Notes: generated by a model from the sequence alone, not told the origin. A stretch of 63,185 bases of DNA, filler included, from Dugesia japonica (GCA_001938525.1; 3 parts of 3 records of this genome joined end to end with filler, not necessarily neighbours in it); one strand, 5' to 3'; counted from the whole stretch's first letter, positions 3,565 to 61,500 are shown. A program made the numbers and translations.

Positions 3565-4121
3565 TGTATTATATAATAATCTATTATAACATTGTAAAAA
3601 TCCAAATAAATTTTTCAAAGGAAAATAACCTTCAAGTTTCTTTTTTGAATTATAAAGTTTCTTTCTTCTGTAAAAACCCATATTTTATCCCATCCATAAA
3701 CATCAACATCGCCTTTATTAATATCTGGAATCCAACCTGATAATTCACCGTATATATTTTTATGAACTTCATTAGTTGTAATTAAATTCAACATTGTTGA
3801 TGATATTTCAGGATCATTAATTATGTCTGCATCTGAAGATCCTAAAGTTAATCTCATCGATTTAAATAAACTTGGAAATCAATTATTTTCTAAAATTATT
3901 TTAGCTTTATGAGCATCTGTAACATCAATCTCTATTTTAAAATATAACATTGAATTACAAATGTCTAATGGATTTGTTGACTGTAAAGATTAAAAAACAA
4001 TATCACCAGAAGACATTAAATTATTAATTGAACCGGATGAAGGTAAAATTCTTACAAAAACATTTTTAAGAAAAAAGTTATGAAAATTAATATTATTATC
4101 AATATTAAGTTTTGTATCCAT
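3565..4121 (-). pseudogene. Decayed Polinton major capsid protein gene (5' part), truncated at the LTR
   Basis: Translates as SGDIVF*SLQSTNPLDICN...MRLTLGS..INDP...STMLN...GELSGWIPDINKG...EGYFPLKNLFGFLQCYNRLLYNT. Collinear with the MCP at 29635, with 30/49 identical residues over MRLTLG..DINKG. Confidence 0.88.
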
Positions 4122-28059: not shown

Positions 28060-28159
28060 NNNNNNNNNNNNNNNNNNNNNNNNNNNNNNNNNNNNNNNNN
28101 NNNTTAATTAATTAANNNNNNNNNNNNNNNNNNNNNNNNNNNNNNNNNNNNNNNNNNNN
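28060..28159. other. Artificial contig spacer
   Basis: 44 N + TTAATTAATTAA (stops in all six frames) + 44 N = 100 bp. Confidence 0.95.
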
Positions 28160-28194
28160 ATATAAAACAACCCTTAATGTCCCAGGGGTACAAG

Positions 28195-28510
28195 GGTTAA
28201 AATGCGAAATGCGAAATTTCATATTCTAAATGCGAAATTCTAAATGAAAATGAAATATCACATAAAATATAGCATAAAATATAGCATTAAATTATTAACA
28301 TTTTAAAAAATGAGATAATGAAATTATTAGTTAAAAATAATATCACATAAAATATAGCAGTGAATATAGCATAAATTTAGTAAAATAATTCTACTCTAAA
28401 AATATCACATAAAATATAGCAGTAAATATAGCAGTAAATTGTCACCATAAAATAATATAGCATAAAATATAACATTAAATATAGCATAATATCGCATAAT
28501 ATCGCATTTC
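28195..28510. repeat. Left subterminal minisatellite (AAATGCG; AAATATAGCA units)
   Basis: Directly visible upstream of the first ORF. Confidence 0.8.
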
Positions 28511-28529
28511 TAAATTTTTCCTCTATAAA

Positions 28530-29606
28530 ATGAATGATTCTAAAAATTTTTTAATAAATAAATACATAAGCTATAAAAAAGATAACCCACATTTAACTGA
28601 AAAAGAAATATGTCAAGAAATTAATACAACAGTTACAATGTTACATAAAGCATTAAGAGCTAACTTTTATAATATTCCAAGAAAAATATATCCTTTATTA
28701 CATTATAGTTATAACGAAGAAGATAAAACATTTGTAAAAGATAAAAATGGAATTTATTTTTTTAATGTTAAAATTAAAGAGTTTGAATTATTATCTAAAA
28801 GAAAAAAACCAGATTTAACTGATAAAAGAACCATGGCACATAAAATTAGTATAAGAAAAAAAACAAGAATATTAAATCCAACAAGTGCTGGGGGAACAAT
28901 TAAAATTGATAAGTTAAATGATAATNNNNNNNNNNNNNNNNNNNNNNNNNNNNNNNNNNNNNNNNNNNNNNNNNNNNNNNNNNNNNNNNNNNNNNNNNNN
29001 NNAAATGATAATAAGCCAAATGAAAATAAACAAAATGATAATAAACAAAATGATAAACAAAATGATAATAAGCCAAATGAAAATAAGCAAAATGATAATA
29101 AGCAAAATGATAATAAACAAAATGATAATAAACAAAATGATAATAAACAAAATGATAATAAACAAAATGATAAACAAAATGATAATAAACAAAATGATAA
29201 TAAGCNAAATGATAAACAAAATGATAATAAGCCAAATGATAATAAGTCAAATGATAATAAGCAAAATGATAAACAAAATGATAATAAGTTAAATGATAAT
29301 AAACAAAATGATAATAAGTCAAATGATAAACAAAATGATAAACAAAATGATAAGCCAAATGATAAACAAAATGATAATAAACAAAATGATAATAAGCCAA
29401 ATGATAAACAAAATGATAAGTCAAATGATAATAAGTTAAATGATAATAAGCCAAATGATAATAAGCCAAATAATAAACAAAATAATAAGCTAAATGTTAA
29501 TAAGTCAAATGTTAATAAGTCAAATGATAATAAACAAAATGTTAAAAATGAAATAGATAAGATATTTGAAGATATCATTAATTATAATAAGAAATATCGA
29601 AGATGA
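28530..29606 (+). CDS. Polinton hypothetical protein: HTH-like N-terminus plus long (NDNKQ)n repeat
   Basis: LTEKEICQEINTTVTMLHKAL is HTH-like; a mixed 12/15-bp repeat stays in frame; TATAAAATG start. Confidence 0.7.
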   Translation: MNDSKNFLINKYISYKKDNPHLTEKEICQEINTTVTMLHKALRANFYNIPRKIYPLLHYSYNEEDKTFVKDKNGIYFFNVKIKEFELLSKRKKPDLTDKRTMAHKISIRKKTRILNPTSAGGTIKIDKLNDNXXXXXXXXXXXXXXXXXXXXXXXXXXNDNKPNENKQNDNKQNDKQNDNKPNENKQNDNKQNDNKQNDNKQNDNKQNDNKQNDKQNDNKQNDNKXNDKQNDNKPNDNKSNDNKQNDKQNDNKLNDNKQNDNKSNDKQNDKQNDKPNDKQNDNKQNDNKPNDKQNDKSNDNKLNDNKPNDNKPNNKQNNKLNVNKSNVNKSNDNKQNVKNEIDKIFEDIINYNKKYRR

Positions 29607-29634
29607 AATAAATCTTAAAATTTTTCTTTATAAA

Positions 29635-30974
29635 ATGCTAGATTTAGATTATAATATTGAATTTCAACATACAGCAATTAAAAATGATATGCTTAAAATT
29701 TCACCTTCATCAGGTTCAATTTCAAATTTAAATGCATCCGGTGACATTGTATTCCAGTCTCTCCAATCAACAAATCCATTAGACATTTGCAATGCGCTAT
29801 TATACTTTAGAATTGAAATAACAGCTTCAGATAAAGATAAAATAACTCTCGAAAATAACTTCTTTCCAAGTTTATTTAAATTAATGAGATTAACACTCGG
29901 ATCCACACATATTGAAACAATCAACGATCCAGGAACAATCTCAACGATGTTAAATTTCATATCTACAACTGATACTTATAAAAAGGAACATGGTCAATTA
30001 TCAGGTTGGATGCCAGATATAAATAAAGGCAACACAGAAACTAAATCATGGGAAAGTAATCTTGGTTATTATAACAGAAAAAAATTATATTCAACAAATA
30101 AATTTGAAGGTTACTTTCAATTAAGAAATTTATTTGGCTTCTTACAGAATTACAATCGGTTATTATACAATACAATGATTGAATTTACATGTACTCGTCA
30201 AATACAAGATAAAATAATATTTTATGGTGAAGAAAAAACAACTGCAACATTAAAACTTTTAACCTTTGAACTTCACATTCCAGAAGTTAGATTANNNNNN
30301 NNNNNNNNNNNNNNNNNNNNNNNNNNNNNNNNNNNNNNNNNNNNNNNNNNNNNNNNNNNNNNNNNNNNNNNNNNNNNAAATCAAATCTTGATTCTGGTGG
30401 ATATTATTCAATTAAAATTAGCTCTTTAGCATATCAACCTAGATATATTTTAATTTGCATAAAAGATCCTGAAAATTCATATCAAAAGAATAATAATTTA
30501 TTCATACAAAGCACACATACAACAGAAAAAGAAAAATATACAGTTAAAGAAGGAACACCTCCAGCTGATGTAGAAAAAGAAAGAGATAAAAAAACATATT
30601 CATCTATAAAAGGTATCCAGTTACAATTAAATAATACTTATTATCCTATTAACGAATTAAGATTAAACATGGAAAATAATGAAATGGCATATCCATATTA
30701 CCAATATATTAAATGTTGTAATGAATTTCTAACAGAACCACAATTATCATTAATGGATTTCACTAATTTATATCCAATGTTCTGTTTCGATGTCAGTGCA
30801 CATGATGACAAAATGAATATTAATAATGTTGATGTCACATTGCATATTACAAAAGATCCTGATTTTCGCGGAATTCTTTACTGGTGCATTCTAGAAGAAA
30901 AGCATGTTGAAATGAAACTTGCTAGTAATAAAATTGTTTTAGTTGAAAATGTTAGAGGAGTTGATATAAAATAA
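29635..30974 (+). CDS. Polinton major capsid protein (double jelly-roll); spans an N gap
   Basis: NNFFPSLF, LRNLFGFL, ELHIPEV; after the gap PRYILIC, LQLNNTYYP, LYPMFCFDVS; ATG at 29635 in TATAAAATG. The frame change falls within the gap. Confidence 0.85.
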
Positions 30975-31250
30975 AAATTGTTTTAGTTGAAAATTGTTAG
31001 ATGTTGATATGAAACATGTTAAAACTTGATATGAAACATGAAACTTGATATAACATGAAATTGTTAGATGTTGATATGAAACATGTTAAAACTTGATATC
31101 AAATTGTTTTAGTTGAAAATTGTTAGATGTTGATATGAAACATGTTAAAACTTGATATGAAACATGTTAAAACTTGATATAAAATTGTTAAAACTTGATA
31201 TGAAACATGTAACTTGTTTTAATTGAAATTGTTAGATGATGATATAAAAT
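30975..31250. repeat. Intergenic minisatellite TTGATATGAAACATGTTAAAAC
   Basis: Multiple tandem and variant copies between MCP and integrase. Confidence 0.85.
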
Positions 31251-31261
31251 AAATATATAAA

Positions 31262-33159
31262 ATGTCCAATCCTAAGTTTATATGTGATTATTGTGGCAAA
31301 GTATTATTAAAAAAGAATAAGTCTCGACATTTAGATTTATGTGTTAACAAAGAACATAAAGCTGTTGGCGGAGATCTACAAAATTCAAGTTTTATATCTT
31401 CACTATTAAAACCAATTACAACAGAAAAATATCCAGGTGAACGCCATCTTTTCAAACATAATTACACTGGACCTGGAACACGCTTAGATATCCGATTAGA
31501 TTCCGAGAATAATCCGAATCCAGGAGAAGAACCTATTAATCAAGTTGATGAAGCCGCTTTGAAACATGACATTGCATATTCCAGTGAAAATATTGAAGAT
31601 AGACATATTGCTGATGTCCATTTAATACATGATCTTAATAATATTGAAAATCCAACTCTTCAAGAAAAATTTCAAAGAGCTCTTGTAAAATTGGCTATGA
31701 AAGGTAAGATCGTTCTAGGACAAGGAACGAGCAAAGTGAGCCACAAAGGACAAAATAAAGGGAGAAAAGATCCATTTAAAAAAACAACAATTTTAAAAGA
31801 TGAATCTGATAACGAAGCAGAGCGTAGCGAGGTCTTAGCCAATGAACTTCACCATGAATATAAAAAAACTAAACATTTTAGAAAAGTTATTGTTTATTAT
31901 AAAGATGAAATTTGGTCAGCCGATCTCGTATTTCAAGGCACAGAACGTAAAAATAAAAATGTGATATTAACAGTAATAGATCTCTATACCCGATTCGCGT
32001 TTATTGAATTAACAAATCAAAAATCTGGACCTAAAATAACAGAAGCATTTAAAAGAATTCTAGAAAAAAATAATAGAACACCTGAGAAACTCTGGGTTGA
32101 TGAAGGTAAAGAATTTTACAATCAACATTTTAAATCTTTCTGTAAAAAGAATAATATTGAAATGTATTCTACTCAAAATCAAGGTAAAGCAGTTGTAATC
32201 GAAAGATTCAATCGAACATTTAAAAATAGACTTTTTAAACATTTTACTTCCAGTGGATCTCAAGTTATCACACAACCACTACTAGATAAAATTGTATATG
32301 AATACAATAATCATATACATTCTAGCATTAATATAACACCTCAAGAAGCAACAATAAATCCTGAAAATATAGAAATCAAAATTCCAGAAATCTATAATGA
32401 AAAACCTAAATTTAGAATTGGTGAAAAAATAAGAATAACTAAATTCAGAAAAACATTTCCTAAAGGTTATACTTTTAAATGGTCNNNNNNNNNNNNNNNN
32501 NNNNNNNNNNNNNNNNNNNNNNNNNNNNNNNNNNNNNNNNNNNNNNNNNNNNNNNNNNNNNNNNNNNNNNNNNNNNNNNNNNNNNNNNNNNNNNNNNNNN
32601 NNNNNNNNNNNNNNNNNNNNNNNNNNNNNNNNNNNNNNNNNNNNNNNNNNNNNNNNNNNNNNNNNNNNNNNNNNNNNNNNNNNNNNNNNNNNNNNNNNNN
32701 NNNNNNNNNNNNNNNNNNNNNNNNNNNNNNNNNTTTAATGTTTAATGTTAAATGTTATTTTTAATAAATAGAAATGTCAGAAAAAGCAGTGTACATATGG
32801 AATAATAATATTACAAAATTTAATAATAAAATACTTCCAAATAATTTTAGATTATTAATAATTGGATCTTCAGGTTCAGGTAAAAATGTTTTATTAATGA
32901 AGATCCTACTGACACCAGGATTCTTAGATTATGACAATTTAATAATCTATTCTACAACAATTAATCAATTTGAAATTCAATTGNNNNNNNNNNNNNNNNN
33001 NNNNNNNNNNNNNNNNNNNNNNNNNNNNNNNNNAAGAAAATTTATATTATAACAAAAATCTATCACGAGCAACCTATAACATATCAAATCTCGAATCTTA
33101 ACGGCAACAAAATACTTGGAAGATTCTATACAAATGAACTTCAAAAGACATCATTATAA
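31262..33159 (+). CDS. Zn-finger / parvovirus-type PLA2 / rve integrase fusion (C-terminus at 33034-33159 displaced by gaps)
   Basis: CDYC-x11-H-x3-C; YTGPGT...DEAALKHDIAY...RHIAD; WSADL, VIDLYTRF, WVDEGKEF, IERFNRT, KFRIGEKIRI, FPKGY..W; tail KIYII...PITYQI..LNG..ILGRFYTNELQK*. Confidence 0.9.
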
Positions 33160-33321
33160 GGTTAAATGTTGGAATGTTAGAATGTTAGAATTATAAATGT
33201 TAGAATGTTAGAATGTTANNNNNNNNNNNNNNNNNNNNNNNNNNNNNNNNNNNNNNNNNNNNNNNNNNNNNNNNNNNNNNNTTTAATGTTTAATGTTAAA
33301 TGTTATTTTTAATAAATAGAA

Positions 33322-34365
33322 ATGTCAGAAAAAGCAGTGTACATATGGAATAATAATATTACAAAATTTAATAATAAAATACTTCCAAATAATTTTAGAT
33401 TATTAATAATTGGATCTTCAGGTTCAGGTAAAAATGTTTTATTAATGAAGATCCTACTGACACCAGGATTCTTAGATTATGACAATTTAATAATCTATTC
33501 TACAACAATTAATCAATTTGAAATTCAATTGTTATATCTCGGATTTGAATCTGGATTATCAAAAGAAGATATTAGTTTAATATTTGAACGCCAACATATA
33601 ATACCTAAGAATCTAGATACTCCAAATGAAGTTATTAAATATTTCATTGAAAAGAAACTTGTCACAAAAAAATCTAAAAGTATTAATATTACATTATCAA
33701 ATCGACCTGATGAAATTGTTTCATGTGACAAGTTATCAAGAGACAAGAAAAATCTTATAATTTTCGATGATGTTGTCAACGAGAAAAATCAACAAATCCA
33801 GAAATCTTATTTCACTCGTGGTCGTCATTCAAATTGCAATGTTATTTATATCTCACAAACTTATTATGATCTCGATAAAAATTCAATACGTAATAATTCA
33901 AATTGTTATATTTTCTNNNNNNNNNNNNNNNNNNNNNNNNNNNNNNNNNNNNNNNNNNNNNNNNNNGATGTAACATTATCTTCTAAACCTAATGAAATTA
34001 TTCCTTGTGATAAACTTTCAAAAGATAAAAAGAATCTAATTATATTCGATGATGTTGTCAATGAAAAGAATCAAGAAATACAGAAATCATATTTCACTCG
34101 TGGTCGACATTCAAATTGCAATGTTATTTATATCTCCCAAACATATTATGATCTAGATAAAAATTCTATACGTAATAATTCAAATTGTTATATTTTCTTC
34201 AAATTAAATAAAACTGATAAAAATAATGTTTATCATGAATTATTTTCAAATATCTTTAATAACAAATTAGATTATTATTATGAAACAAATCTACACTGGA
34301 AAACTAAATATAATTATTTCATCTTAACAAGGAAACTGATGAACTCTTAGATGATTTATTTTAAC
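33322..34365 (+). CDS. FtsK/A32-like DNA packaging ATPase (partly duplicated across gaps)
   Basis: IIGSSGSGKN (Walker A variant), LIIFDDV (Walker B), RGRH arginine finger, ISQTY; identical 5' copy at 32774-32983. Confidence 0.92.
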
Positions 34366-34519
34366 ATTAAATAATGATATATTTCAGATCCTTTTCTAAA
34401 TGGTATAAACTCATTTTGATTTGTTCTATTCCCATGCTAAAAGTCCGTAGGCTTTCCATTATATTCTACAAGTTGATGTGAAATTAATATCTTCCATTTT
34501 AATTGCGCTTGTGGCTTTT

Positions 34520-35653
34520 TTAATCATGCATATCTAATTCATGTCTAGATTCCTCTTCTATTGCTAAATTTATCTTCTTAGAAAAAAATATTCTAATTCT
34601 TTTTATTTCTTTTTCTATTGTTCGAAATGCCCAATTTGATTTTAATATTTCTGGATACTTCTCAGCGAAATTATAAAATTTTATCATTTTGTTTATATAA
34701 TTAATATTATAATGAATACCAATTTCACGTAAATGATTTACTTTTTCACTATTACTTTTAAAATAATTTTTTAACTGTTTAAGGTAAAATCCTAAATTAT
34801 AAATACTTATTAAAGTAATTTTTTTCCCAATATTATAATTATTATTCCAAATTAAAATATTTTCATTTAAATTTTCTAGATTAGCATTTTCAGTTCTCAA
34901 TGGTAATATTACACATATTGATTTTAATTCTGTTTCATTATTTACAAGTGATTTATAAAAATCACGAAAGAACTTAATATTATCTTCTATCATTCCTCTT
35001 TCAAGCATTTCAGGAATTTTTTTGTATTTTTCTATTATATCATCTGTATTCGTTATTTCAGATATTTCATCTAAAGTTTTATCACTTACATATCCACATT
35101 CTACATCTAAAGTTTTATCACTTTCATATCCACATTCAACATGTCCACATTCTACCTTTTGGTCTTTTGTTACTCTTACAACATGTATAATATCACCCCT
35201 ACAGTTTTTAAAATTTATAGTGTCAACATCACCCCTTCCTTGATATATCATCATGTCATCATATTCTATTTTATTATTATTTTTTAAAAATAAATCAAAT
35301 TTTTCTCTACAAATTCTGCATTGTATAATCATTTCCTTTTTATCAGTAAATAAAATAATATCATGTAAACATTTTTTTACATTTTTAAAATAATGTTTTA
35401 TATAAGCTAAATACACACTATATCTATTTTCTCTATGTAGTATAATAATGGACTTATTATATTTTTCAGCTTTCTTCTTATACGCTATTTCTGAATTTTT
35501 AATATCAATCAGTGTTAATAATATTTCTTTATTTGATTTGTAAAGAATCACTCGACCTTTATTTGTTTTAATATGTAAAAATTCTCCATTTCTATTTTTT
35601 ACTACACAATTTCCATATAATTTTTTAATTTTTTTTAATAACTTTTCCGACAT
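34520..35653 (-). CDS. Intact 377-aa accessory ORF of unknown function
   Basis: Uninterrupted; CxxC (CRIC), short VECGY repeats, helical C-terminus. Confidence 0.75.
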   Translation of the reverse strand: MSEKLLKKIKKLYGNCVVKNRNGEFLHIKTNKGRVILYKSNKEILLTLIDIKNSEIAYKKKAEKYNKSIIILHRENRYSVYLAYIKHYFKNVKKCLHDIILFTDKKEMIIQCRICREKFDLFLKNNNKIEYDDMMIYQGRGDVDTINFKNCRGDIIHVVRVTKDQKVECGHVECGYESDKTLDVECGYVSDKTLDEISEITNTDDIIEKYKKIPEMLERGMIEDNIKFFRDFYKSLVNNETELKSICVILPLRTENANLENLNENILIWNNNYNIGKKITLISIYNLGFYLKQLKNYFKSNSEKVNHLREIGIHYNINYINKMIKFYNFAEKYPEILKSNWAFRTIEKEIKRIRIFFSKKINLAIEEESRHELDMHD

Positions 35654-35775
35654 TTTCTTCCTTTATGGTTTTTCTTCCTTTATGGTTTTTCTTCCTTTAT
35701 GGTTTTTCTTCCTTTATGGTTTTTCTTCCTTTATGGTTTTTCTTCCTTTATGGTTTTTCTTCCTTTATGGTTTTT
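35653..35775 (-). repeat. 17-bp tandem repeat x7 (ACCATAAAGGAAGAAAA) abutting the ATG
   Basis: Plus strand TTTTCTTCCTTTATGGT repeated; variant also at ~38968-39010. Confidence 0.9.
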
Positions 35776-35958
35776 CGTGCTTGTGGCTTTTTTCTTAAGA
35801 AATAATTTAATCATACATATCTGTTCTCATGCGAACAATTTCTGGATATTTAAATCCTAAGTTTCAAGTTTTAAAATGTTAAATCCGACATGTTAAATTG
35901 TTAAATCCCAAGTTTTGATTTTAGTAGTTCATTAATTGTGCACTTTGTTCGGCTTCGC

Positions 35959-36563
35959 TTATATTCCTAGCTTAGCGCGCATTTCAGAAATAACTTTATT
36001 TTGATTTTCAAGTAACAGTTTTAAGTTGTTAGTGTCGGTCGCTCCGCTTGCTTTCTTATGTCCTGAGATCAACTCATGTACATCTGTAACCATCTTTTTA
36101 CTAATATTTAACTCTTCATCTGTTAAAATTTCATCATTAACTGCTTTCTGTTGAAATAAAAATAATTTATTTTTAACACATTCAAGTTTAGTTATTAATT
36201 TTGAATATCTTTCTTTTCGAGATTGAACAAATGAAGTGTTCATTGTTCCTATTACAGGTAACACTGAAATTGCTCCTGTTATAACTGGAATACCAACTGC
36301 TGTTATTGTAAGACCAACTGGAGTTATAAATATAATACCAGCTATTCCAATAATATCTGTGTATATTTAATTCCAGAATCAATTTTATTCCATTTCTTTT
36401 CTAATTTCTTATAATGTTTAATTTTATCTTTAATATAATACAAATCATTTTCAAAATCTTTAATTCTAGATAAAGCAAGTTTATTTTTTAAATCTTGAAT
36501 CTCATTTCCAGAATAATCATCATAACCTTTTGATAGAGTAGGATAAATATTATCAGGTTCCAT
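35959..36563 (-). pseudogene. Polinton membrane protein with two hydrophobic helices, split by one frameshift near 36355
   Basis: NIYPTL...RIKDFENDL...KKW, then IIGIAGIIFITPVGLTITAVGIPVITGAISVL, then KNKLF...NDEILTDEEL; homologue at 62490-63173. Confidence 0.7.
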
Positions 36564-38967
36564 CTATTTCTTATTAATATAAATTTGATAAATATAAAGT
36601 TTATCTGGAAAAGTTAATTCTATAAAATTTGATTTGTTATCAGGAATTAAATTTGTCTTGTCATAGTAAATTTTGTTATCTTTTGAAGTCACAAAATATT
36701 CATTTATAGTATTATTTAGTTTAATGCTATATTTAAAATTACCATCTACAGTGTGACCTACAAATCTAAAACCTGTTATATTTAATTCTGAATATGTTTT
36801 NATAGAAATAACAAATGGTTTTTCAAGATAAAAATAACCATTTTCTATTTTTCCTTTTCTTTTAAAATCTATTCTTTCTACATCTCTATTAATATAATAC
36901 CAAGGATATGTTACATTAAATATTTTAAAACTGAACATCTTAGTTTTATCATTTGAAATTAAATTACTAAATGGAATGTAATTATCAATTATTTCTTTTA
37001 TACTTTTAAGTCTTATTTCATCATTATTTGCAGAATATTCTTTCATTAAAGTATCAATTCTGTTAACATGAGATTTATGAAGATTTTTTTTTATTTTTTC
37101 ATATTCTTTCAACNAATTCATCTGGAATTTTAAATGTAATAATTTTAATATCTAAATTCATTAAAAAAATTCCTTTTGGTAACATTATTTCAATGTAAGC
37201 GATTTCAGCAACATTTAAAATTTCTTTGCTTTCACGATAAATATTCATAAGATTATCATTAGGTTTCACATATAAAAATGTTACTGCTTTATGGTTAATT
37301 TTAATGTAATAACTAAATTTTGGAACTTCACAGAAACCAGAAATACTTATTCCGACTTTATTTTTTAATTTTTTATGTAATTTAATAATTAAAATATCTT
37401 TAATATTAAAATAATGATCACTGAATGTTGTATGTTTAAAACAATCTTTTCTTGTAAAATCTAAATCATATACACAATCTTTATCAAAACTAAAACATGG
37501 AAGTAAATCATTTTTCTTTATTGGAATTATTGAAAATATTAGATATAGATCAGGTGGAAAGCTACGTCGGTCTGCGCGTAAATAAGGTAAATAATTATCA
37601 ATTAAATGTTTTATTTTTATAATGTTAAATGTTTCAGATATAATGTTAAATTTATCAATAAAATATTTATGTAAGTATGGTTTTATCTTATCAAATTCTT
37701 TAGTTATATCTTCATATTTTTTACTGTTATCTAACATTTCTCTTATGGCTTTATTATTANNNNNTTTAAATAATAAATCAATATTGTTAATTTGTTTATT
37801 ATTAAATTTTGGTTTCAGTGATTCATACTCTTCTTTTAATTCTTCAAACGTTTCTATTGATTCACTGATAACATTTATTTTTTGTAACCAGAATCCTTTT
37901 GGTAAAATTATTTCAATAGAATTTACTTTTGTTTCACTGATATTTGCTCTAAAATTAAAATGATTTTCTTCCGTAACATATGTAAATCCATGAATGTTAT
38001 TATTATTAACATTAACATTATAATAAAAGGTTTTAGATATATAATAATAACCGGTTATACTTACAACAGTTTTTTCATTTATCTTTGTGGTTAAATGAAT
38101 AGAAAAATCATTTAAAATATAAAAATGTTGATTTTCCATTATACCTTTTCTTTTAAAATCTAAATTGGTTATATATTTATCCATAACAGTAAATTGTGGA
38201 AGATCGCTTTTATCATCACAAAAAATTGAAAATATTATTTTTTTAGTATCAAGAAAAACATATNNNNNNNNNNNNNNNNNNNNNNNNNNNNNNNNNNNNN
38301 NNNNNNNNNNNNNNNNNNNNNNNNNNNNNNNNNNNNNNNTAAAACTTATATGTAGTTTTGGTTTTATTTTTTCATATTCTTTAAATAATTTAATTTTATC
38401 AATATTAATTGTATAGTAGTCAAAAGTTTTCTTGTCTAAATTATCATTTAATATCTCAATATCTTTTTTAATTTTCAATGAATCAAGCGTATCAGAATCT
38501 AATTCTTTTAATTTAATTAATAAATCACTTCTTTTATATGAAAAAACTGATAATTTTAGAATTTTAATTTCACTGAAGATTTTGTCAAATGTTTCTTGAT
38601 TACAGTTTTTTGTTAATTTTTGAATTTTAGTATTTAAACCTGAAATATCAACATTTAACACTTTTAATTCTGAGATTTTAGATTCTAAATATAACTTGTT
38701 AGCTGTAAAACTATCAACTTTTAATAATTTATTGAATATTATTTCATGTTTTTCTAATTTTTCTTCTAAAGATTTTATATATTTCAAATTAACCGCATCT
38801 TGTAGATCCTTGGGATCGTCTTTTATTTTTAGAAATGTTATAGAATCACCTGTTTCATTTACATATTTATTTTCAGCCTGAGCATCTAAGGTTCTAATTT
38901 TAGCATTTACATTTTTCAATATTTCTGTTGAATCGTTAGAATCAGCTGTTGCACCAAACTTATTCAT
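36564..38967 (-). CDS. Fibre/adhesin-like protein with three tandem diverged domains; probably one ~800-aa ORF broken at an ambiguous base (37114)
   Basis: KYVNETGDSIT and DDPKDLQDAVNLKYI (fibre-like motifs), a coiled coil, then 3x [KE(Y/F)(E/D)KIK..LH...FS...(L/I)DF.RK...(I)(S/T)G]. Confidence 0.65.
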
Positions 38968-38993
38968 CTTCTTCCTTTATGGTTCTTCTTCCT

Positions 38994-39431
38994 TTATGGT
39001 TCTTCTTCCTTCTTTTTTAATATTGAATTATAAAGATCTAACATTTCAGATATAATATTCCCGAAGGCGCTACGCTTTTCGAGTGAATATAAAAAATAAA
39101 TACATAAGATTCCACATATTTCAGTGTTAAAATGTTGCACTTGAATTTTATTATAAACTTTAGTAAATTTTTCAAGTTGATCTAAAGGTTTTAAACCAAA
39201 AGAATCAAAATAAAATCCTTTATGATATGCAACCCAATGTGTTCCATTTTGATTTGAATTTTGATAATTAAAAATGTAACATTTAGAATGTAAAATTTTA
39301 AATTGCTCATTTTTCATGTAAATCTCAAGAGGTAGATCTAAAAATTTAGCAATTGAATATAAATCAAAATTTGTTGTTGTGTTAATACCAAATGTTTTTA
39401 GAAAATCTAATAAACAGAATTCTTGTGACAT
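38994..39431 (-). CDS. Adenain-like (Ulp1/CE clan) maturation cysteine protease
   Basis: GTHWVA, YFDSFG, QVQ, CGILC give the His-Asp-Gln-Cys catalytic residues. Confidence 0.93.
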   Translation of the reverse strand: MSQEFCLLDFLKTFGINTTTNFDLYSIAKFLDLPLEIYMKNEQFKILHSKCYIFNYQNSNQNGTHWVAYHKGFYFDSFGLKPLDQLEKFTKVYNKIQVQHFNTEICGILCIYFLYSLEKRSAFGNIISEMLDLYNSILKKKEEEP

Positions 39432-39434
39432 TTT

Positions 39435-40211
39435 CTATAATCGATATTTACGTAGATGTGCTAAAATTGTAATTGTTTCTTGGTTAAAGTCGATGGTGTT
39501 AAAGTTTTCATCTACTATGTTAAATTTAAAATTGTCAATGTAATCTGTGTTAATTTTAGAATAAATAGGTGGAGATGGACGTTCTACTATTTTATATCCA
39601 AATGGAACTGTGTTAATTGGAAATGAATATAATAAATTAATTTTTTCTGTTTTTACATTGGTTGTTGCATAATTACCTTTAACAATGTTACATGTTACAT
39701 TTATCGCGTTAATATTTGAAATGTTAATTTTAGAATCTGAATAATAATCTCCAGGTTCATATTTTCCAGGTTTAAATCCTAGGATCTCGTGGAAGAATGA
39801 TTTAGAATCAAATGTTATAGTAACTTTAGTTTTAATGTTACATTTAGATGTTGCAAGGTCAGGTTTAATTTCTAAATATTTTTCTAAACGATTTGACATT
39901 TCTTTTACTTCATATGACCCTGGTTCCAAGGATTTTTCACCTGGGGTTATAACTTCATATTTTTCTTGTTGTTGTTGTTTTTGTCCTTGTGGTTGTTGTT
40001 GTTGTTGTTTTTGTTGTTGTTTATCATGTTGTTGTTTTATATATTTTCCTTCGGCATGAAATTTATTATTCAAACTGGTAATATTAAAAATAATATTGTA
40101 ACATGAAAAATATAACAATCCAAGTTCATATTCTGAATCTAATTTTATCGGGAAATCAAGATTAATTTTTAAATCTTGTTCTGTTCCAACTACTAAGAAT
40201 TGATGGGACAT
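39435..40211 (-). CDS. Minor capsid protein (penton) with polyQ insertion
   Basis: PIKLD.EYELGL, PGSYEV, INVTCNIV, PFGYKIVERP.P.Y, DENFNTIDF. Confidence 0.85.
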   Translation of the reverse strand: MSHQFLVVGTEQDLKINLDFPIKLDSEYELGLLYFSCYNIIFNITSLNNKFHAEGKYIKQQHDKQQQKQQQQQPQGQKQQQQEKYEVITPGEKSLEPGSYEVKEMSNRLEKYLEIKPDLATSKCNIKTKVTITFDSKSFFHEILGFKPGKYEPGDYYSDSKINISNINAINVTCNIVKGNYATTNVKTEKINLLYSFPINTVPFGYKIVERPSPPIYSKINTDYIDNFKFNIVDENFNTIDFNQETITILAHLRKYRL

Positions 40212-40247
40212 TTTGTTAAGATGTTAAATGATGAAATGTAACATTTC

Positions 40248-41165
40248 TCACTTAAAATATTTAGTTTTATATTTTTTATAAATAATATTAGATAATAAAC
40301 CTTTAGATTTTAATTGTTTACAGAGAGATTTAATTTCAGATCCGAGATTATTGTGTCCAGATTTTACAGCTGAAATTAATAATGTTAACTTTTCAAATAA
40401 TGCAATTGGATTCCTATCTTTATAACCATGTTTTATTCCTTTAGCTTTATAAATTTTTCTCTCTATAGGTTCTGACTTATCTTCTTTTTCTGTTGCATAT
40501 TCTGTATCATATTCAGTTCCTGATTCTGCTTCTGAATGTTTAGCTGTTCCTTCTGTTTTAATTGTTTTCTTTCTTTTTGTTTTGNNNNNNNNNNNNNNNN
40601 NNNNNNNNNNNNNNNATTTATTAACATAATCACAATTAGTTGGAAATGGTGATATAAATTTTAAATATGTTTCGATATCAGAAGGTGTTTCTTTATTATC
40701 TGGGTTTCCAAGGATTAATCTAAAAATTCCATCTGTGTATGGTAAAATTTCAGATTTGAATAAGAAATTTTTAGTGTTTTCTTCCTCAAATAAATAAATT
40801 TTATTTTCATTGAAAGTTATTTCCAGAAAACTTTTAATTTTATCAACCGCTATAATATCTAATTTAGAAAACTTAGGAGTAATTTTTTGGGTTAATTTAC
40901 CAGAAGTATCAATGTTATCAGTTGAATATATAGGTGCGAAAGGAAGTATTTTTTCATTCAAAAAGAATTTTGTTATATCTCTAGTTTCTGGTTTTAATAG
41001 TTCTTTTCCTGTTGCAAGTTTTTCAATTGCGGTGATTGTTGGTTGTTGTAAAGTTGACAAGTTAGATTGTAAAATGTTATAATCTTGAATTTTATGACAA
41101 TGTAAATTATTATATTTTTCACGAATGGTGATTAGATCATTTAATTCTTTAATTCTATCATGCAT
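40248..41165 (-). CDS. Polinton hypothetical protein, probably conserved core/PZ-like
   Basis: C-terminal LFEKLTLLISAVKSGHNNLGSEIKSL...L..KGLL resembles a motif I recall from Polinton uncharacterised ORFs. Confidence 0.6.
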   Translation of the reverse strand: MHDRIKELNDLITIREKYNNLHCHKIQDYNILQSNLSTLQQPTITAIEKLATGKELLKPETRDITKFFLNEKILPFAPIYSTDNIDTSGKLTQKITPKFSKLDIIAVDKIKSFLEITFNENKIYLFEEENTKNFLFKSEILPYTDGIFRLILGNPDNKETPSDIETYLKFISPFPTNCDYVNKXXXXXXXXXXXKTKRKKTIKTEGTAKHSEAESGTEYDTEYATEKEDKSEPIERKIYKAKGIKHGYKDRNPIALFEKLTLLISAVKSGHNNLGSEIKSLCKQLKSKGLLSNIIYKKYKTKYFK

Positions 41166-41194
41166 TTTTTAATGGTTTAATTTAAAGGTTTCCT

Positions 41195-41812
41195 TTATGT
41201 TTCATCATCTTCGGTTTCATAATCATCTTCGTCTTCGGTTTCAGTTTCAGTTTCAGTTTCATCTTCAAAACCTTTTCCTTGTTGTTGTGTATTATATGGA
41301 TTTAAATATATTCCTTTTCCTTTCTTAACTATGTGAGTTCCAGATTTAAACTTTTTAGTTAATAATTTAAATTTAGGATCAATGTTTTTTAAATATTTGT
41401 GTATTGCGGTTCCTTGATATGGATTTAGAAATATTCCTTTTCCTTTATGGTTTTTACCTTTAACTCCAGTTCCTGTTTTGTTATCGTTTAATTTTTGTTG
41501 TTCTACTTGTTTTTGTATGTCAAGTATTTCACCTTGTTTTTGTTTATTTATTTTTTCAAGAGCTTGAGCTTGGGCAGCTCTTGAATTAGCAACTGTAGTT
41601 GCAACACCAGATGCAATTCCAGTTGAAGTTGCTAAAGCACTAATTACCCATGGTATTGCAGCTAAGAATGCAAATCCACCTTCTTTGTGTTTTTTAACCG
41701 CTTCATCTTTAACTTTTTTAGAGATACAATAATTTTTACCGTTTATTTTTACTGATTTACATTTTCTAGAATTTATAATTTTAATTAATTCTTCTTCTGT
41801 TGCTTCTGTCAT
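41195..41812 (-). CDS. Adenovirus pX/cupiennin-like core/membrane-active peptide precursor
   Basis: KEGG-FAFLAAIPWVISALATSTGIASGV; repeated KGKGI[FY]LNPY; acidic tail. Confidence 0.7.
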   Translation of the reverse strand: MTEATEEELIKIINSRKCKSVKINGKNYCISKKVKDEAVKKHKEGGFAFLAAIPWVISALATSTGIASGVATTVANSRAAQAQALEKINKQKQGEILDIQKQVEQQKLNDNKTGTGVKGKNHKGKGIFLNPYQGTAIHKYLKNIDPKFKLLTKKFKSGTHIVKKGKGIYLNPYNTQQQGKGFEDETETETETEDEDDYETEDDET

Positions 41813-41834
41813 ATCTATTTTATATATTTACATT

Positions 41835-44800
41835 TTAGCATTTTACATTTTTATTTATTATGTCTAATCTCATATGCCAAATTAAACATGTTTCACAATA
41901 ACATTGATTTCCATGTGGCCATGTTGTTGTTGCGTTATCTTCGATTATTCTTTTATCAGAATAAGCTGTTAATGCTATTTTCTTTTGTGAAGTTAATTTA
42001 ATAATATGGAGTTCAGATTTTAATGAATAATTTGTTCCATAGATTATTTTCTTTGAATCTTCTATTATTGAATCAAATTCTTGCATTCTAATAGGATTGA
42101 AAGCTTGAACACCTTTATGTTTTTTAGATAATTTTACTTCGTTTGCTTTATCTATATATTCATATGCGTAAGATTTTGGTTTTATAAATACACATTTTAG
42201 AATTTCAGAATTTGGCATTTCATCTTTCATTTGAAAAAGATTATCACCAGTTAATGAATTTAGAATTTCAAGATTATTATCACCGATGATCTCTACAAAT
42301 ACAGAATCAGTGTCAGAATAATGAATTTTATAGTTATCTTTAACTGCTGGTTCTAACTGGTTATATACGAAATTGTACATTACTTCTTTAGCATATTCGA
42401 GAATAGTGAAACCTAGATATGGAAATTTATTATAATTTAATTTCGTTTTCATCATGTGAACTGCTGCAATTTTAGATGCAATTCCTGGTTCTAATTTGAA
42501 AGTTTTAGAACTTAAATATGTTGGTTTAGAAACTAGATTTTGATAATCTTCATCAGTTCCTACAATATGAACATTGCAACGATTTCTGATATTTTCTAGC
42601 GTTTTACCATAAAATGAATTATTCATATCTTTAAAGAAACTTACTCCAAATTCATCTTTATTTTTTTTAGCTAAAGATCTTTGTTCGATATTAAATAGAA
42701 TGTAATCTTTTAACCATGTAGATACTGACATTTTATATTTTGAATGTATCTTTTTTAATTTCATTCCTAATGAAAGATATAGATCTAGGGTTGAGCCTAA
42801 GATTATATAATTTTTCTTATCGAATTGATTCATTGTTAATTTTTTATTTTTATCTGATATTTTTATATTGAATGATTTTTGGTAATTACTTAACATATCT
42901 TGTGTAATAACTAAACTTTCAGGTGCTAATGGGAAATATTTAGTTTTATCATGAATTTCTCTTGGATATTCAAGATCAACTTCATATAGAAAATTCATAG
43001 TATCTGTTGCTGGTTCGTAATCTAACTCGTTAAATTCAATAAATTCACCTGTTGGAAGAGGTTATGTCATACAACTTGAATATAAAGAATTTGCATCTAG
43101 ATATTTTATATGTCTATTTTCCATTATATTTTCAACATTAATTTCTTGTTTTGAATTCATCATTTTTACGAGATTATCAAAATCTGATTTATTTAATTGT
43201 CTTGTATATGGATCTTTATTTTTATTATATGAAAACACTTGACGGTCACCTTCCTCACCAGAATAGCCACCACGTACTCCACGTTCAAATTTTAGAAAAG
43301 TATTATAAGTTTCTTTTTTAGCAAATTTTAGTTTCTGTTGTGAAAATCTCATTCTTGCTTGCCATGTTAAACCCGATGTGGTATAGCAATAACTTGGGTC
43401 TATTTTATAAAAGTCAAGACATATTTTTCTAAAGTTTTCTACGTAATCTGCTAAGATTAAAACATCTAGTTTCATATAGTGTAACATATAATTCCAGAGA
43501 TTTCCATGTATTTTATAATCATTTAAAAATTCTTGATATTCTTGGTCGGAGATTCCTTTTTGTCTTAGTTTAGAAAAGAAATCTTCTTTTGTTGGTGTTC
43601 TATTAGATTTTAATAATTCTATGATTTCTTCTGTATTGTTTCCTTTTATAAAGTCATATGGAAATGAGACTTTTTTAGGTTTTAGTTTGTATAATGTTAA
43701 TATTTCATGCTTTCCTGATTTAGAGAGTGTTTCACCCATTTTCTCGACTGTAGTTTTACATATTTTAAATGAATCTAGGAATCTAATATTTCCATAATTA
43801 AATGCTATATATTGATCTTCAGAATGTGGAATTATATTTTTTAGTTTACCCGGATCATTACATATAAGTTGTCTGAAGAATAAATGATTATCGTAACCCA
43901 TTGCATTGTGAAAGTAACATGGTATAAATAAATTTTGTGGTTTACATTCTTTGTGAATATAACCTCGAGGTTCTTGAGTTAAATAATTATAATCGAAAAC
44001 TGAATCTTTTAGAATTTGTCCGGAGGTCAGCGTAGCGATCGGTTGTTCACAATAGTAACATTTATTATTTACTGGTGGATATTCCCCGTTGTATGATTTT
44101 TCTATATTTTCAAATTTAATATTAATGTTATCAAGAAATTTTATAAATTCGTTAACTACATTTTCACCTGATGAATAATAATATTTACTTGGAATTAATT
44201 CTGGATAATCAGATTTTACATATATTCCGAGACTTATTGGTTCTTGAGTATTATCATGATTAGTGTAACATTCAAAATCGGCGTAGATTACAAATGGAAT
44301 TTTATTTTTAAAATAATAATTTTGAAATTTAAAATGTTCTTGATATGGAAATTTAACACTTATTGATTTATGATGTATACATTCTTCTTGATGTTTTAAT
44401 AAAACTTCATTAGAAGAATAAATATTCATACAACCGAGACATAACTGATTACCATATTTAATATTAAATAAAGTATGTACATTTCTAACTAGAATAAAAT
44501 GACTTTTATAAATTAGAAGGCTACATTTATTTTCTTCTGGTTCTGGTTTTACTGTGAAATGTTTAATGCGAATTGGTATAATTTTAGTATCTAATTCAAA
44601 AATATTTATCTTGTAATTATTTAATTTCTCGAAGATTTTTATGTCAGCGAGTTCAGTTGGGAAATTCATTCCTTGGATATTTAATTCTGGTAAATGTGGG
44701 GTATAATTAGAAACGCGTGTTGGATTTCGAAAAATATATTTATGTGCGAGAATTGAATATAGAAAGCATTTATCATCTTTATTTTCTATGTTAATAATTC

Positions 44801-45590
44801 CATATTTATTTTTCAATTCTTCTGGTAACTCTTGATAAGTATATGCGCCAGCTTTACATATTGAACCATATTTTTCAAATACTACTTTGTAACTGATTAT
44901 ATGTGACATGACCCAACCAGAACCTTCTAGTTCTTTATTTCGCATATAATTTTCTAGTCTTTCATATACATCATCTAATTTTTTAGGTATTGATGCTTTT
45001 GTGTAAATTTTCACACTTGGTACATATGAATAAATTCGCTTTGTTTCTTCTTCTCTTAAATACAAACATGTAACACCCAATTTGAATTCAAATCTAAAAC
45101 CTAGTTTGAAAAACTCTCTAACGACATATTCAATTTCTATTTCAAGTGGTTTTGTTGTTTCTAACATTCTTTCTTCTACATTTTTTATCATTATTAATCT
45201 ACTATTTAAATTGACATCGATATAATAATATTCTGGAAATGTTTCATAATTAAATACTTCTAGAATTGTTTTAGGTCTTGATCTCCAATTTTTATCTATT
45301 TTCTTTTGTAATAACAAATGTCGTTGATTTGTTAATTTATGTGCATTTATTAATTCTATGGTATCAAAATGCTTATCGCAGAGTTCACAATATAAATGTA
45401 TTAAATTACATTTAGTTTTTTTAAAATGTACATTTAACCCATGTTGAGTTCTAAATTTTTTATTGCAAATTGGACATGTTATATAATCATTTGGATTTAT
45501 AATTTGACATTTTCTAGATTCTATATGTGAATTTAATCCACGTTGATTTTTAAATATTTTATCACAGTTGGTGCATTTTAATGAAGACAT
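41835..45590 (-). pseudogene. polB: Protein-primed family B DNA polymerase, 1252 codons with a single in-frame TAA at 43062-43064
   Basis: Three N-terminal Zn fingers, EGSGW, YADFEC (ExoI), FHNAMGYD (ExoII), YMKLDV (ExoIII), YLDANSLY (A), KDMNNSFYGK (B), YSDTDS (C). The two ORFs are in frame: CMT*PLPTGEF...DTMNF. Confidence 0.93.
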
Positions 45591-45661
45591 TTGTTTTTTT
45601 ATCCTCTTTTATTATAATAAAATTTTAATCATAGTATATCGATTTCCTCTTTAATTACAGT

Positions 45662-45937
45662 ATAGAATTGTAGAATGTAGAATGTGAAATGTAGAATGTA
45701 GAATGTAGAATGTGTCATTGTAGAATGTGTCATTGTAGAATGTGTCATTGTAGAATGTGTCATTGTAGAATGTGAAATGTAGAATGTGACATTGTAGAAT
45801 GTGAAATGTAGAATGTGAAATGTAGAATGTAGAATGTGAAATGTAGAATGTGAAATGTAGAATGTGAAATGTAGAATGTGAAATGTAGAATATGAAATGT
45901 AGAATGTGAAATGTAGAATGTGAAATGTAGAATGTGA
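45662..45937. repeat. Right subterminal minisatellite (GTAGAATGTGAAAT)n / (GTAGAATGTGTCATT)n
   Basis: Directly visible upstream of polB. Confidence 0.9.
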
Positions 45938-46074
45938 CAATAACACAATTCCCCCAAGGTTCCTCGAACCCTAGGGGAATATGGGTTGTTTTTCATATAC
46001 TTATATGATATAATTTTTTGTGTGTTTTTTAAAGGTTGGTGGGTCCTTTTATATTAATTTTCCCGGCTTGGATC

Positions 46075-46174
46075 NNNNNNNNNNNNNNNNNNNNNNNNNN
46101 NNNNNNNNNNNNNNNNNNTTAATTAATTAANNNNNNNNNNNNNNNNNNNNNNNNNNNNNNNNNNNNNNNNNNNN
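46075..46174. other. Artificial contig spacer
   Basis: 44 N + TTAATTAATTAA + 44 N. Confidence 0.95.
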
Positions 46175-58549: not shown

Positions 58550-61500
58550 TTAATAACCAAAAGGTACTGTTGTAATACCATCATTTAATAAAAATCTTTT
58601 GTCATCAAAAGGGGTTAGAGCTTTCTTTAATTGTTTAGTTTCTTTTACAACATGTAATTTGGAACCAATAGAATAATTTTTTCCTTGGATTGTTTCATTA
58701 TTATACAAAACATTTTTGTAGTGTTGTTTCTTTATGTTTTGTATATTCTTGATCTTTAACTAAACAATATGATTTTGCTTTGATAAAGAAAGCTTCAGTA
58801 ATTATTTCATTTGGAAATTCATCTTTCATTTGGAAAAGGTTGTTTCCAAATAAATGTTGAATTTTCAATTTGAATTCATTCCATGATTGATTAGGATGAA
58901 TAAACTCCATCATTAGAGAATCAGTATCTGAATAATGGATTTTCTATTGACCTGGAATTAAACTTTTTAGATCATTGTATACAAACTTGTACATGATTAA
59001 TTTTGCATACTCTAGGACAAAGAAACCAATGTATGGAAATTTGTTGTACATTATTGATGCATTTTAATTTTTAACTAGTGTGGCTTGATTATTAATTATA
59101 ATTGAAGATTTAAAGAATGGTTTAGAAGTTGCATTTTTAATCATTCTTTCAGTTGTAGCCAAAAACAAGTTTTCTCTATTTCGTACATTTCTAGAGTTTT
59201 TCCATAAAATGCATTATTTAGTAATTTGAAAAAACCATCACCAAATGTTTTATTATCCCTCTTGGCTTTATTTCTATTTGAAATGTTGGATTCAATGTAA
59301 TCTTTAAGCCAGTGTTTTGTTTTTATTATTATTTTATTATGTATTTTGGAAAGGATCATTCCTTGATCGAGATAGAAATCCAATACTCGACCTAGACATA
59401 CATAATTGTACTTGTTTTTTGATCCATAATCAACTTGGGATATTTACTTTGTTTTCTATCACCTAATAATTTCTTTTGATAATCTGACAAGTCATTGTAA
59501 TCTATTCGTTGTTTATCTACAGCTAATGGATAGTATTAGTTTTTTCTTCTACAGTATAAATATAATCGGTATATATATTTTCATTATTAATGACCTTGTA
59601 TTCGTTGGTTGTGCGTTGATAGATTGTATTTGAATACCATTCCATGTCTCCAAATGGTAATCTTTCTGTCATGCAAACAGAATACATACTATTTTGATCT
59701 AGACATTTTAATGTGTGATGTTCATCAGCAATCACATGTCAAATTCCCCAGACACCTGAATAACCACCACAGATTCTTTGTTCAATAGTAAGATAGATCA
59801 TAATCATCATATTTGGGATATTTTAATTCTATACCAGATACTTTCATTCCAATTTCCCATGTAAGTCCTGGAGCAGAATAACAATATGATGGATCAATTT
59901 CATTCTTTTCTATTGATACTTGTTTAAAGTTTTCAAAGAAATCTGTGAGGATTAGTACGTCTAGTTTCATGTAGTGCAATGTATATTCAAAAAGATTATC
60001 AAAGTTGGAATATTCAGCTAAGAATATTTCATTGTCTGTTGGAGACATTGGTTTTTGTTTTAGAGTATTATAAAAGTCGTTTATATTAGGGGTATAATTT
60101 GCATTTTATTTACAACTTGAGAATATGTGCCATGTATCAACTTGTATGGATAGAAACCCTTGGTTGGTTTTAGATTATTTATTTTCAAATACTTGTAATT
60201 ATTTGTTTTGGATAAATCTACACCCATTTGTTCAACTGAATGGCCTGAACATATTTTGTATGAATCTAGAAATCTGATTCGTAAAAATGAAAATGAAATG
60301 TAGACATCAGTAGTCAGTGGAATTAGATTTTTAATTTCAGAGGGATACATTTTCAACAATTCCATAAAGACAAAGTGATTATCAAATTTTGCTGCATTAT
60401 GTGCATATGTAGGAACAAAATAATTTTTCATCGACCTGTCATTCAAATTACAAATTACATGAGAATATCCTCTGAAATTACCAGTCCAATGATTATGGTC
60501 AATCACAATATCATTTTTATTTGGTACATTTTATTATTATATTTATCAATTTCAGGAGTAGTAAATACTGGGTTACAATAATAACATTTTTCAGGCACAT
60601 CAGTTATTGTACTTGGATCAAGAGGTAGTAATTTATTTTGTAATATTAAATCAATAATTTAGGAAAAATTTACAAGCCATTTGATGAATGTTTCAGCACA
60701 ATCTGGTCCAATGAAATATCTATATTTACTAGGGATTTCAGGATAATGAGAAACTAATTGAAAATCAAGACACAAGGGTTTTAGTTCTTAATCCCTAAAA
60801 GTTTCCAAGTCGTAGTAAATTGTAAATAGATTTTGATTTTTTTAAATAGTACTTTCTAAATGAATACTTGTCCTTGTAGCTAAGCTTTACTTCAGTAGAT
60901 TTGAAATTTATACATGATTTTTGATGATTAATTAGTGCTTGAGTATCTCGTTTAAATGTCATGCAATTTATACAAATTTCTTGTACATGTTTGCTTTTAA
61001 TGTAAATCTTACTCAAGTCACGAATTAAAACATAATGATTATTGTATAATAACAAATTACATTTTCTAGTTGTACTTGAAGGACAAGGATCCAAATGAGA
61101 ATTGTACAATTTAACAATTATTCGTTTTTCCTTTTTAGGATCAGGAATAATTTCAAATACATTTACCAAAAAGTTGTTTAGCTTTTCAAATTTAGGAATA
61201 TCCGTTATTTTTACAGGAAAGGTTATATTTGTAAAATTTAATTTAGGAAGAAAAGTATAATTAAAAACAGAATCTCCAAGATTAGGGTTCAAATGTGCTT
61301 GAATACAATATTCAAAACATTTATCATCATTATTTTTAATGTTTAAAAGTTTGATTGTTGAATTCCATTCTGTTGGTAAAGGAGAATATCCCTGTCCAGA
61401 TAAAGAATCATATTTTGAAAGATGAATTGTCAATGAATTAAATTGATCAAAAGCCCAACCAGATCCTTCTCCTTCTACTTCGAAAATTTCTTCATTCAAT

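Follow-up and report, generated by a model that had tools for sequence, protein, structure and literature searches.

What does a Polinton gain by making its integrase behind a phospholipase? The window (the whole 63,185-nt stretch of Dugesia japonica DNA that we analysed) raises this question at 31262-32484, where a single frame from the ATG at 31262 runs for 407 codons without a stop and then enters an N gap at 32485-32733. A preliminary description of this DNA had reported a gap-free frame over the same interval; the frame is indeed open and holds no N, but 32484 is the edge of the gap and not the end of the ORF. Every motif that had been quoted from it is present: a C2HC finger (C8/C11/H23/C27), AVGG (G36-G37, nucleotide 31367), YTGPG (Y68-G70-G72, 31463), HDIAY (H102-D103-Y106, 31565) with D118 further on, LGQG (G153-Q154-G155, 31715), and the integrase D/D/E triad (D221/D280/E314). 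The catalytic residues of both the PLA2 and the integrase are all intact. The gene has the following parts.

31262-32484, plus strand: fusion ORF in a single frame from ATG 31262, zinc-finger leader, PF08398 PLA2, and PF00665 rve integrase
31262..31372, plus strand: leader with a C-x2-C-x11-H-x3-C zinc finger, ending in GG (G36-G37, 31367-31372); predicted pro-peptide
31373..31723, plus strand: parvovirus VP1u-type PLA2, predicted mature form D38-Q154 (~117 aa), with PF08398 match, Ca loop YTGPG, H102-D103-x-x-Y106, and D118
31718..31726, plus strand: G153-Q154-G155, GX↓G site at which PLA2 and integrase are predicted to be cut apart, from motif conservation and stand-alone C-termini
31727..31828, plus strand: charged linker, predicted disordered (pLDDT <50 at residues 156-170 and 173-180)
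31829..32484, plus strand: rve integrase with D221/D280/E314, PF00665 over residues 215-302, entering the N gap
33034-33159, plus strand: displaced integrase C-terminal piece, no chromodomain, ending ELQKTSL-stop; matches P0002 residues 424-463 (40 aa) at 63% identity, E 7e-15

Two N gaps and a duplicated segment (D13) lie between the main ORF and the displaced piece, which aligns with the last residues of the database protein P0002.

A YxGxG loop together with an HDxxY catalytic motif is the signature of parvovirus VP1u PLA2. The loop, H-D-x-x-Y, and the second Asp are all present in the window PLA2, which matches PF08398 over residues 62-131 (E 1.9e-8, 34.9 bits, cut-off 23.9), and among 50 fusions H102 is retained in 49, D103 in 47, Y106 in 49, and D118 in 48. 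As originally proposed, the domain belongs to the parvovirus-type sPLA2 family, and its residues predict an enzyme. An AlphaFold model of the fusion built from 23 sequences (pTM 0.44) showed two domains at high confidence and disorder in the linker, with blocks at pLDDT 82-94 in residues 51-150 and three helices with high pLDDT, but the structural match to a PLA2 was weak: rice PLA2 (2wg7_A) aligned to model residues 61-160 at rank 46 with Z 6.2, rmsd 3.9, and 88 residues aligned, values in the range of chance matches. Foldseek with the full model returned integrase-type matches with no PLA2 among them, a single-sequence model of the PLA2 domain alone reached pLDDT 34, and a PDB profile search placed parvovirus VP1 at E 0.3-2 only, after three unrelated matches. 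The integrase matched PF00665 (E 1.6e-10, 41.6 bits, cut-off 32.6), its top Foldseek and VIA matches were retroviral integrase cores (Z 18.6, rmsd 2.5, 149 aligned), and its catalytic residues are retained in all non-gapped rows but one of the 50 fusions. The leader finger drew sub-threshold zinc-finger matches only in Pfam (E 0.03-0.045) and is missing from P0011, P0012, P0015, and P0017; the linker is reduced to GLG alone in P0011-13, P0015, and P0017.

The surrounding element carries a DDE-triad rve integrase, a PolB, a double jelly-roll capsid, and an A32 ATPase, all features of Polintons, and was assembled as follows.

28160..46074, no strand assigned: Polinton/adintovirus element as assembled, 18 kb, with N-TTAATTAATTAA-N spacers at both sides
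29635..30974, plus strand: double jelly-roll major capsid, PF21738 E 2.7e-9 and 3.6e-7
33322..34350, plus strand: A32-like packaging ATPase, PF04665 E 1.5e-10, with assembly duplication D17 inside
38994..39431, minus strand: adenain-like cysteine protease, candidate processing enzyme, with HWV, YFDSFG, and Q..CG motifs; His, Asp, and Cys present
39435..40211, minus strand: candidate minor capsid (penton) protein, no Pfam match above cut-off
41195..41812, minus strand: candidate membrane-active core protein, five GG/GxG motifs and a hydrophobic segment at GG↓FAFLAAIPWVI; likened to pX/cupiennin on resemblance alone
41835..45590, minus strand: protein-primed PolB with N-terminal C2H2 fingers, in-frame TAA at 43062-43064, and YLDANSLY, NSFYGK, and YSDTDS motifs

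Because the N-TTAATTAATTAA-N spacers (28060-28159 and 46075-46174) look like artificial joins, the outer DNA may not be true flank, and TIRs and a target-site duplication are unreadable where the element ends abut them, with short degenerate similarity by eye. This copy is probably non-autonomous, as its PolB has an in-frame stop; the PolB gave no Pfam PolB match and a tblastn match to a 1601-aa ORF in locus L068 (E 3e-36). Weak tblastn homologues of the candidate minor capsid protein adjoin the ATPase in nine loci, and by eye it resembles a protein labelled Penton in the supplement of Buck et al. 2024. A tblastn search of the window revealed no second PLA2 or integrase.

An assembly chimera of two adjacent genes could produce such a frame in an element that is gappy and has local duplications. 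Among sequencing runs, 13 of 24 rows contain part of the stretch, with a best share of 0.44 and no RNA among the matches listed. Positions 31262-32484 are nevertheless free of N, and the architecture recurs in 50 database proteins (the window's own counted), in a single ORF in 16 of the best 80 of 205 metagenome loci, and in published records, so that the chimera reading is effectively refuted; the in-frame PLA2-integrase fusion is almost certainly real. A search with the PLA2 region found both domains in 17 of 22 matches by Pfam labels and in 18 of 22 by our own profiles, within proteins of 223-713 aa, a filter biased towards fusions. The best 150 cluster representatives, which are protein records without DNA context, comprised 32 fused, 106 integrase-only, and 12 PLA2-only entries. 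A 180-row FastTree of the integrase domain placed the window in a clade of 31 rows (clade A; SH-like 98) made up of 29 fusions and two N-truncated fragments, and the survey of relatives that had been suggested at the outset found the fusion in many separate elements. A scan of IMG/VR with the clade A alignment gave nine pattern matches, none of them confirmed. Median pairwise dN/dS in clade A was 0.21 for the PLA2 and for the integrase (17 and 14 unsaturated of 21 pairs, near saturation); both domains are under purifying selection. No chromodomain was found in clade A tails, the displaced piece of the window included. Our integrase and PLA2 trees are both FastTree analyses with SH-like support only, and we draw no order of events from the PLA2 tree because it has 99 columns and carries long-branch warnings.

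The fusion had been put forward as possibly new, and it is not: a 'PLA2-Integrase' label is already in the literature, and the architecture is common in databases. The supplement of Buck et al. 2024 (PMC11071296) gives this label to Adinto6405 (BK066529) and Adinto15303 (BK066759), which like the window have the order PLA2-GxG-rve in one ORF, and uAdinto11140 and uAdinto15034, labelled only 'Integrase', start with zinc finger-GGDLQ-PLA2 as the window protein does. Within the covered text of that paper the fusion is a label only, with no discussion, cleavage site, or -1 form found. Slippery sites are proposed there for Penton and Hexon-Adenain only, by KnotInFrame prediction, and several entries are labelled 'PLA2X-Adenain' (PMC11071296). 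Adintoviruses also have a stand-alone PLA2X (Starrett et al. 2021, PMC8502044). Like the window PLA2, PLA2X and the Maverick CAP protein (PMC5803895) contain a parvovirus-VP1-like PLA2 proposed as an entry protein; PLA2X, encoded by a gene of its own, has a pX-like part at its C-terminus, whereas no pX-like C-terminal domain was found on the window PLA2 gene, where the integrase follows instead. Five database proteins (P0021-P0023, P0149, and P0233) are close PLA2 relatives in which a GG motif and a hydrophobic helix follow, with no integrase; they are PLA2X-like, and P0021-P0023 look like the PLA2X type. Polinton or PLV phospholipases, with a proposed entry role, appear in Yutin 2013 and 2015, Bellas 2021, PMC5803895, and a June 2026 framework preprint, and no PLA2-integrase fusion was seen in the parts of these five sources that were covered; the covered parts of PMC11161782, PMC11131425, and an October 2026 preprint had no phospholipase mention. 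Searches of the openly readable literature found neither the fusion nor the frameshift described below in the main text of papers, and nothing on this junction in connection with Polinton or Maverick frameshifts and integrase. The cleavage borders and the -1 form of clade B, to which we now turn, appear to be new.

The earlier suggestion that AVGG and LGQG are processing-type flanks of the PLA2 gained support, as the two motifs are conserved, rare elsewhere, and match natural stand-alone C-termini. Of 48 fusions, 42 have a GG or GxG motif no more than 14 aa from where the PLA2 ends, as against 4 of 645 control windows taken from these integrases; on the N side the corresponding counts are 28 of 39 and 3 of 166. 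G36 is present in 37 of 50 fusions, and the other 13 are gapped there. The closest stand-alone PLA2s are P0173, with LIGQ at its C-terminus, and P0175, with FLGG; P0067 finishes in FIGQ. All three are protein records, whose stops are not seen in DNA. Eight loci end in G-L/V/M (NFGL/NLGV/NFGM) with a real stop (L030, L039, L040, L055, L058, L067, L069, and L073); these loci are closely related, and two have split PLA2 ORFs. More distant stand-alone PLA2s (L065, L068, L072, L074, and L076) have longer tails and no motif. Because the motif brackets the PLA2 and stand-alone relatives stop at the same G-x, a viral protease quite likely cleaves at the GG/GxG borders.

Adenain-type proteases work during virion maturation, as is established for adenovirus. 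The candidate at 38994..39431 matched PF00770 at E 0.0015 with 18.7 bits, under the cut-off of 21.3, and its homologues adjoin the gene pair in L014, L015, L047, and L079. The candidate membrane-active core protein has its five GG/GxG motifs within 205 aa, as against none in the protease, the minor-capsid candidate, or the C-terminal PolB ORF; it has no Pfam match, and its homologues come after the fusion gene in L002 and L003. The protease of mavirus cleaves at GG↓X and at GX↓G, its action at virion maturation has been proposed, and mavirus virions contain the integrase MV02 and two fragments of the hydrolase MV13 (PMC6048507). Mavirus thus resembles the arrangement proposed here in having an rve integrase and a processed hydrolase in virions and a protease of this specificity; it differs in that the genes are separate, the hydrolase is of the alpha/beta type and not an sPLA2, and no frameshift was seen in the covered part of that study (PMC6048507).

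A frameshift between the two domains in sibling copies had been named as a finding that would count against a polyprotein. Such a frameshift does occur in relatives that form a clade of their own, yet there it looks programmed, which strengthens the polyprotein idea. Our metagenome scan confirmed 205 relatives, and the best 80 of these comprised 16 fused loci, 46 with PLA2 and integrase as separate ORFs, and 18 with PLA2 only. We retained 51 of the 80, those in which the PLA2 end is complete and the integrase begins no more than 400 nt away (29 were dropped). Forty of the 51 have an integrase starting W-T/S/N-x-x-L-A-x-E-L (clade B), and the full-length ones group at support 99 (FastTree). Among the 31 clean clade B copies the integrase is at -1 in 21, in frame in 5, and at +1 in 5, and the nine decayed copies are spread 3/3/3 over the three frame states; the other 11 loci are 8 clean and 2 decayed in-frame copies and L023, a clade B copy at -1 with its Trp lost. 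The clean -1 copies form 19 clusters at 90% and are related, so counts among them are not independent. All 21 contain an A run of at least 6 in the window open in both frames (control mean 0.24, maximum 2 in 2000 draws), 18 contain an in-frame XXXYYYZ heptamer (control mean 0.57, maximum 4), and the remaining 3 have a non-canonical slip site. A_AAA_AAC is a known efficient -1 site (shift-site list, PMC5009743). The first Met lies past the catalytic D1 in 20 of the 21 and is missing in one truncated copy, yet the integrase segment before that Met has a dN/dS of 0.077 (70 unsaturated pairs). Splicing was rejected as a link between the two ORFs, as the gaps are 24-100 nt and several have no GT; coupling of the ATGA/TAATG type was rejected for the 21 clean -1 copies, which have no in-frame ATG near the stop. 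Clade B also has DUF5679 in place of the zinc finger, F at the loop Tyr position in 21 of 21 copies, and a weak integrase chromodomain match (E 9e-4, below cut-off).

Four copies that share the junction GGTTTAAAAAAAG differ by a PLA2 dS of 0.3-2.5 at a dN/dS of 0.04-0.06 and are synonymously saturated or nearly so. Because dN/dS is low across such copies with the same junction, we infer that the clade B integrase stayed functional though reachable only through a slip or a non-AUG start, and -1 recoding is likely in this clade. The overlapping -1 ORF, under strong purifying selection and without a start of its own, has two exceptions: L082, a further -1 copy from IMG/VR with a Met directly after the conserved Trp, and the published BK012049, with its own Met upstream of that Trp. 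In L044, L050, L054, and L062 a -1-frame stop lies a few bases from the start of the A run and thus pins the slip to the run. The PLA2-frame stop shows modest enrichment at V/L/I-K-W codons (16 of 18 versus 177 of 298). Folding without pseudoknots detected no 3' stimulatory RNA structure at clade B slip sites (mean z -0.21), and the consensus fold 3' of the site (-1.9 kcal/mol, 0 of 5 pairs compensatory) showed no covariation. Besides a tandem -1 shift, ribosome sliding on A runs (PMC4363877, PMC4552401) and transcript slippage are possible mechanisms.

What these elements conserve is the joined product, and we propose the following chain of events for its use, to which we assign a probability of about 0.6 as a whole. 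A leader-GG↓PLA2-GX↓G-integrase polyprotein would be packed into the virus particle, and the element's own protease would cut it at GG and GxG during maturation. Once released, the ~117-aa PLA2 would open the endosome, while the integrase, also released, would arrive with the incoming genome. Clade A would make the joined product 1:1, in frame; in clade B the main product would be leader-PLA2, with PLA2-integrase as a minor one made through a -1 slip, as in Gag/Gag-Pol. Retroviruses append the enzyme to a virion protein in Gag/Gag-Pol, either in frame or through a -1 shift, and the viral protease then frees it. Polintons differ from retroviruses in being DNA viruses with a double jelly-roll capsid, no reverse transcriptase, and, here, no stimulatory structure found, and the carrier is an entry phospholipase where the retroviral carrier is a capsid protein. 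Parvovirus VP1u PLA2 shares YxGxG and HDxxY with the window and is joined to a capsid protein, not to an integrase. The Penton and Hexon-Adenain proposals of Buck et al. 2024 resemble clade B, in that recoding adds an enzyme to a virion protein, and differ in the partner.

Taken separately, packaging of the polyprotein in the virion is probable. The idea of a packaged polyprotein, first raised in the preliminary description, keeps its basis in a real in-frame fusion, processing-type flanks, and the mavirus precedent, and loses the novelty of the fusion. Membrane penetration need not be coupled to the delivery of integrase: a GxG cut would mean that PLA2 and integrase act separately and that the fusion is mainly a packaging route. 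No Maverick-Polinton virion has been observed so far according to the covered part of a recent preprint (10.64898/2026.06.19.733378), and movement of these elements as integrase-loaded particles is for now a hypothesis; no Polinton virion proteome turned up in our literature searches. It is about an even call that a broad Polinton group uses a Gag/Gag-Pol strategy, with a PLA2 carrier, fusion or a structure-independent -1 slip on poly-A (poly-Lys), and protease release at GG/GxG.

The polyprotein might instead be an expression device only, in which the PLA2 is packaged and the integrase is freed early in the producing cell or remade after entry. Many Polintons encode a separate integrase with its own ATG (L039, L040, and L076), and the same PLA2 module stands alone in L040 and L081, so packaging cannot always need the fusion; the 106 integrase-only representatives, which are protein records, point the same way. 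We nevertheless regard this reading as unlikely, as an adenain-type site implies co-assembly, such proteases acting at virion maturation, as mavirus packages its rve integrase (PMC6048507), and as a -1 layout favouring PLA2 over integrase fits virion stoichiometry. A protease-bracketed fusion of an integrase and an entry enzyme, with a ratio set by recoding in a separate clade, is sensible mainly if the integrase is packaged. Direct coupling, close to the strongest form of the original proposal, would follow if the fusion were left uncut and the PLA2, as a head that binds or cuts membranes, carried integrase and DNA together through the endosomal membrane or the nuclear envelope. The C-side motif is missing in 6 of 48 fusions (the N-side motif in 11 of 39) and the linker is only GLG in several, but GxG is seldom found in other places (4 of 645), stand-alone PLA2s stop at this very residue, and the model has a disordered linker at pTM 0.44, which together make an uncut fusion quite improbable.

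The other rival concerns clade B, whose -1 split could be unprogrammed, reflecting homopolymer decay or assembly error, or an independent integrase start at a near-cognate CTG, GTG, or TTG or on its own transcript; the window fusion would then be a clade-level fusion without the Gag-Pol analogy. L011, L028, and L044, of one subgroup, carry A8, A9, and A10, so that A runs also mutate or mis-assemble, and this variation, the five clean +1 copies, an xTG codon overlapping the PLA2 stop in many copies, the usable Met in L082 and BK012049, the lack of a detected stimulator, and the origin of many loci in few datasets all fit such a reading. Against it, -1 junctions are identical across synonymous saturation with integrase dN/dS at ~0.04-0.06, A runs of at least 6 are rare outside the junction (6 in 17.7 kb; KK is AAAAAA in 4 of 45 cases within the integrase), the would-be start is TTA, GTA, CCG, or CTC in several copies, and -1-frame stops adjoin the A run in the four loci named above. 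We consider an unprogrammed split improbable, and programmed recoding remains our reading of clade B.

If the proposed chain holds, a DNA virus has converged on retroviral Gag-Pol logic and offers a natural -1 site without evident RNA structure. Integrases of the -1 clade annotated from the first Met would then be truncated, without the first catalytic Asp, and their annotation would need correcting; for Adinto13074, the annotated integrase start is a Met just ahead of KLYHKTNKGFKYLL, by alignment past that Asp (PMC11071296). The Polinton proposal can be tested cheaply and without virus.

Several single loci add detail. L009 and L010 are clade B copies in frame with the A run lost, which suggests that the -1 form can turn into a plain fusion. 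L098 (9950-10030) is in frame across an A8 run, but 2 nt are duplicated a few codons after the integrase begins, for a net offset of -1. L039 and L040 have the clade B leader-PLA2 module alone (NFGL-stop) in a different gene order, with an integrase that has its own start; the module seems to move between lineages. L081 (9920-10519) is a Polinton-like contig whose DUF5679-PLA2 ends KLGLSYR-stop, with no integrase match in 13.3 of 17.6 kb. Thirteen IMG/VR contigs of 3.3-3.5 kb (L083-L095) have a short PLA2 ORF, which in L083 matches PF08398 at E 2.3e-9.

The window linker has an A7 run of its own at 31778-31784, and no A run of at least 6 was found in the 8 other non-clade-B linkers compared. 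Its context (31778-31803, TTT AAA AAA ACA) is the non-canonical form of the clade B sites L029, L079, and L082, and a -1 slip there would meet the TGA present in that frame at 31801 and give a PLA2-only product, mirroring clade B; the run may be due to chance in DNA of 26% GC. Elsewhere in the window, 58556-61694 (minus strand) contains fragments of a broken PolB, with 33-54% identity to that of the element, and 3565-4109 (minus strand) a broken capsid gene at 60-75% identity, both from other Polinton copies. Within the element, a 15/12-nt tandem array at 28926-29560 encodes an N/D/K/Q repeat in the ORF 28530-29606, with an SAGG motif directly before the repeat.
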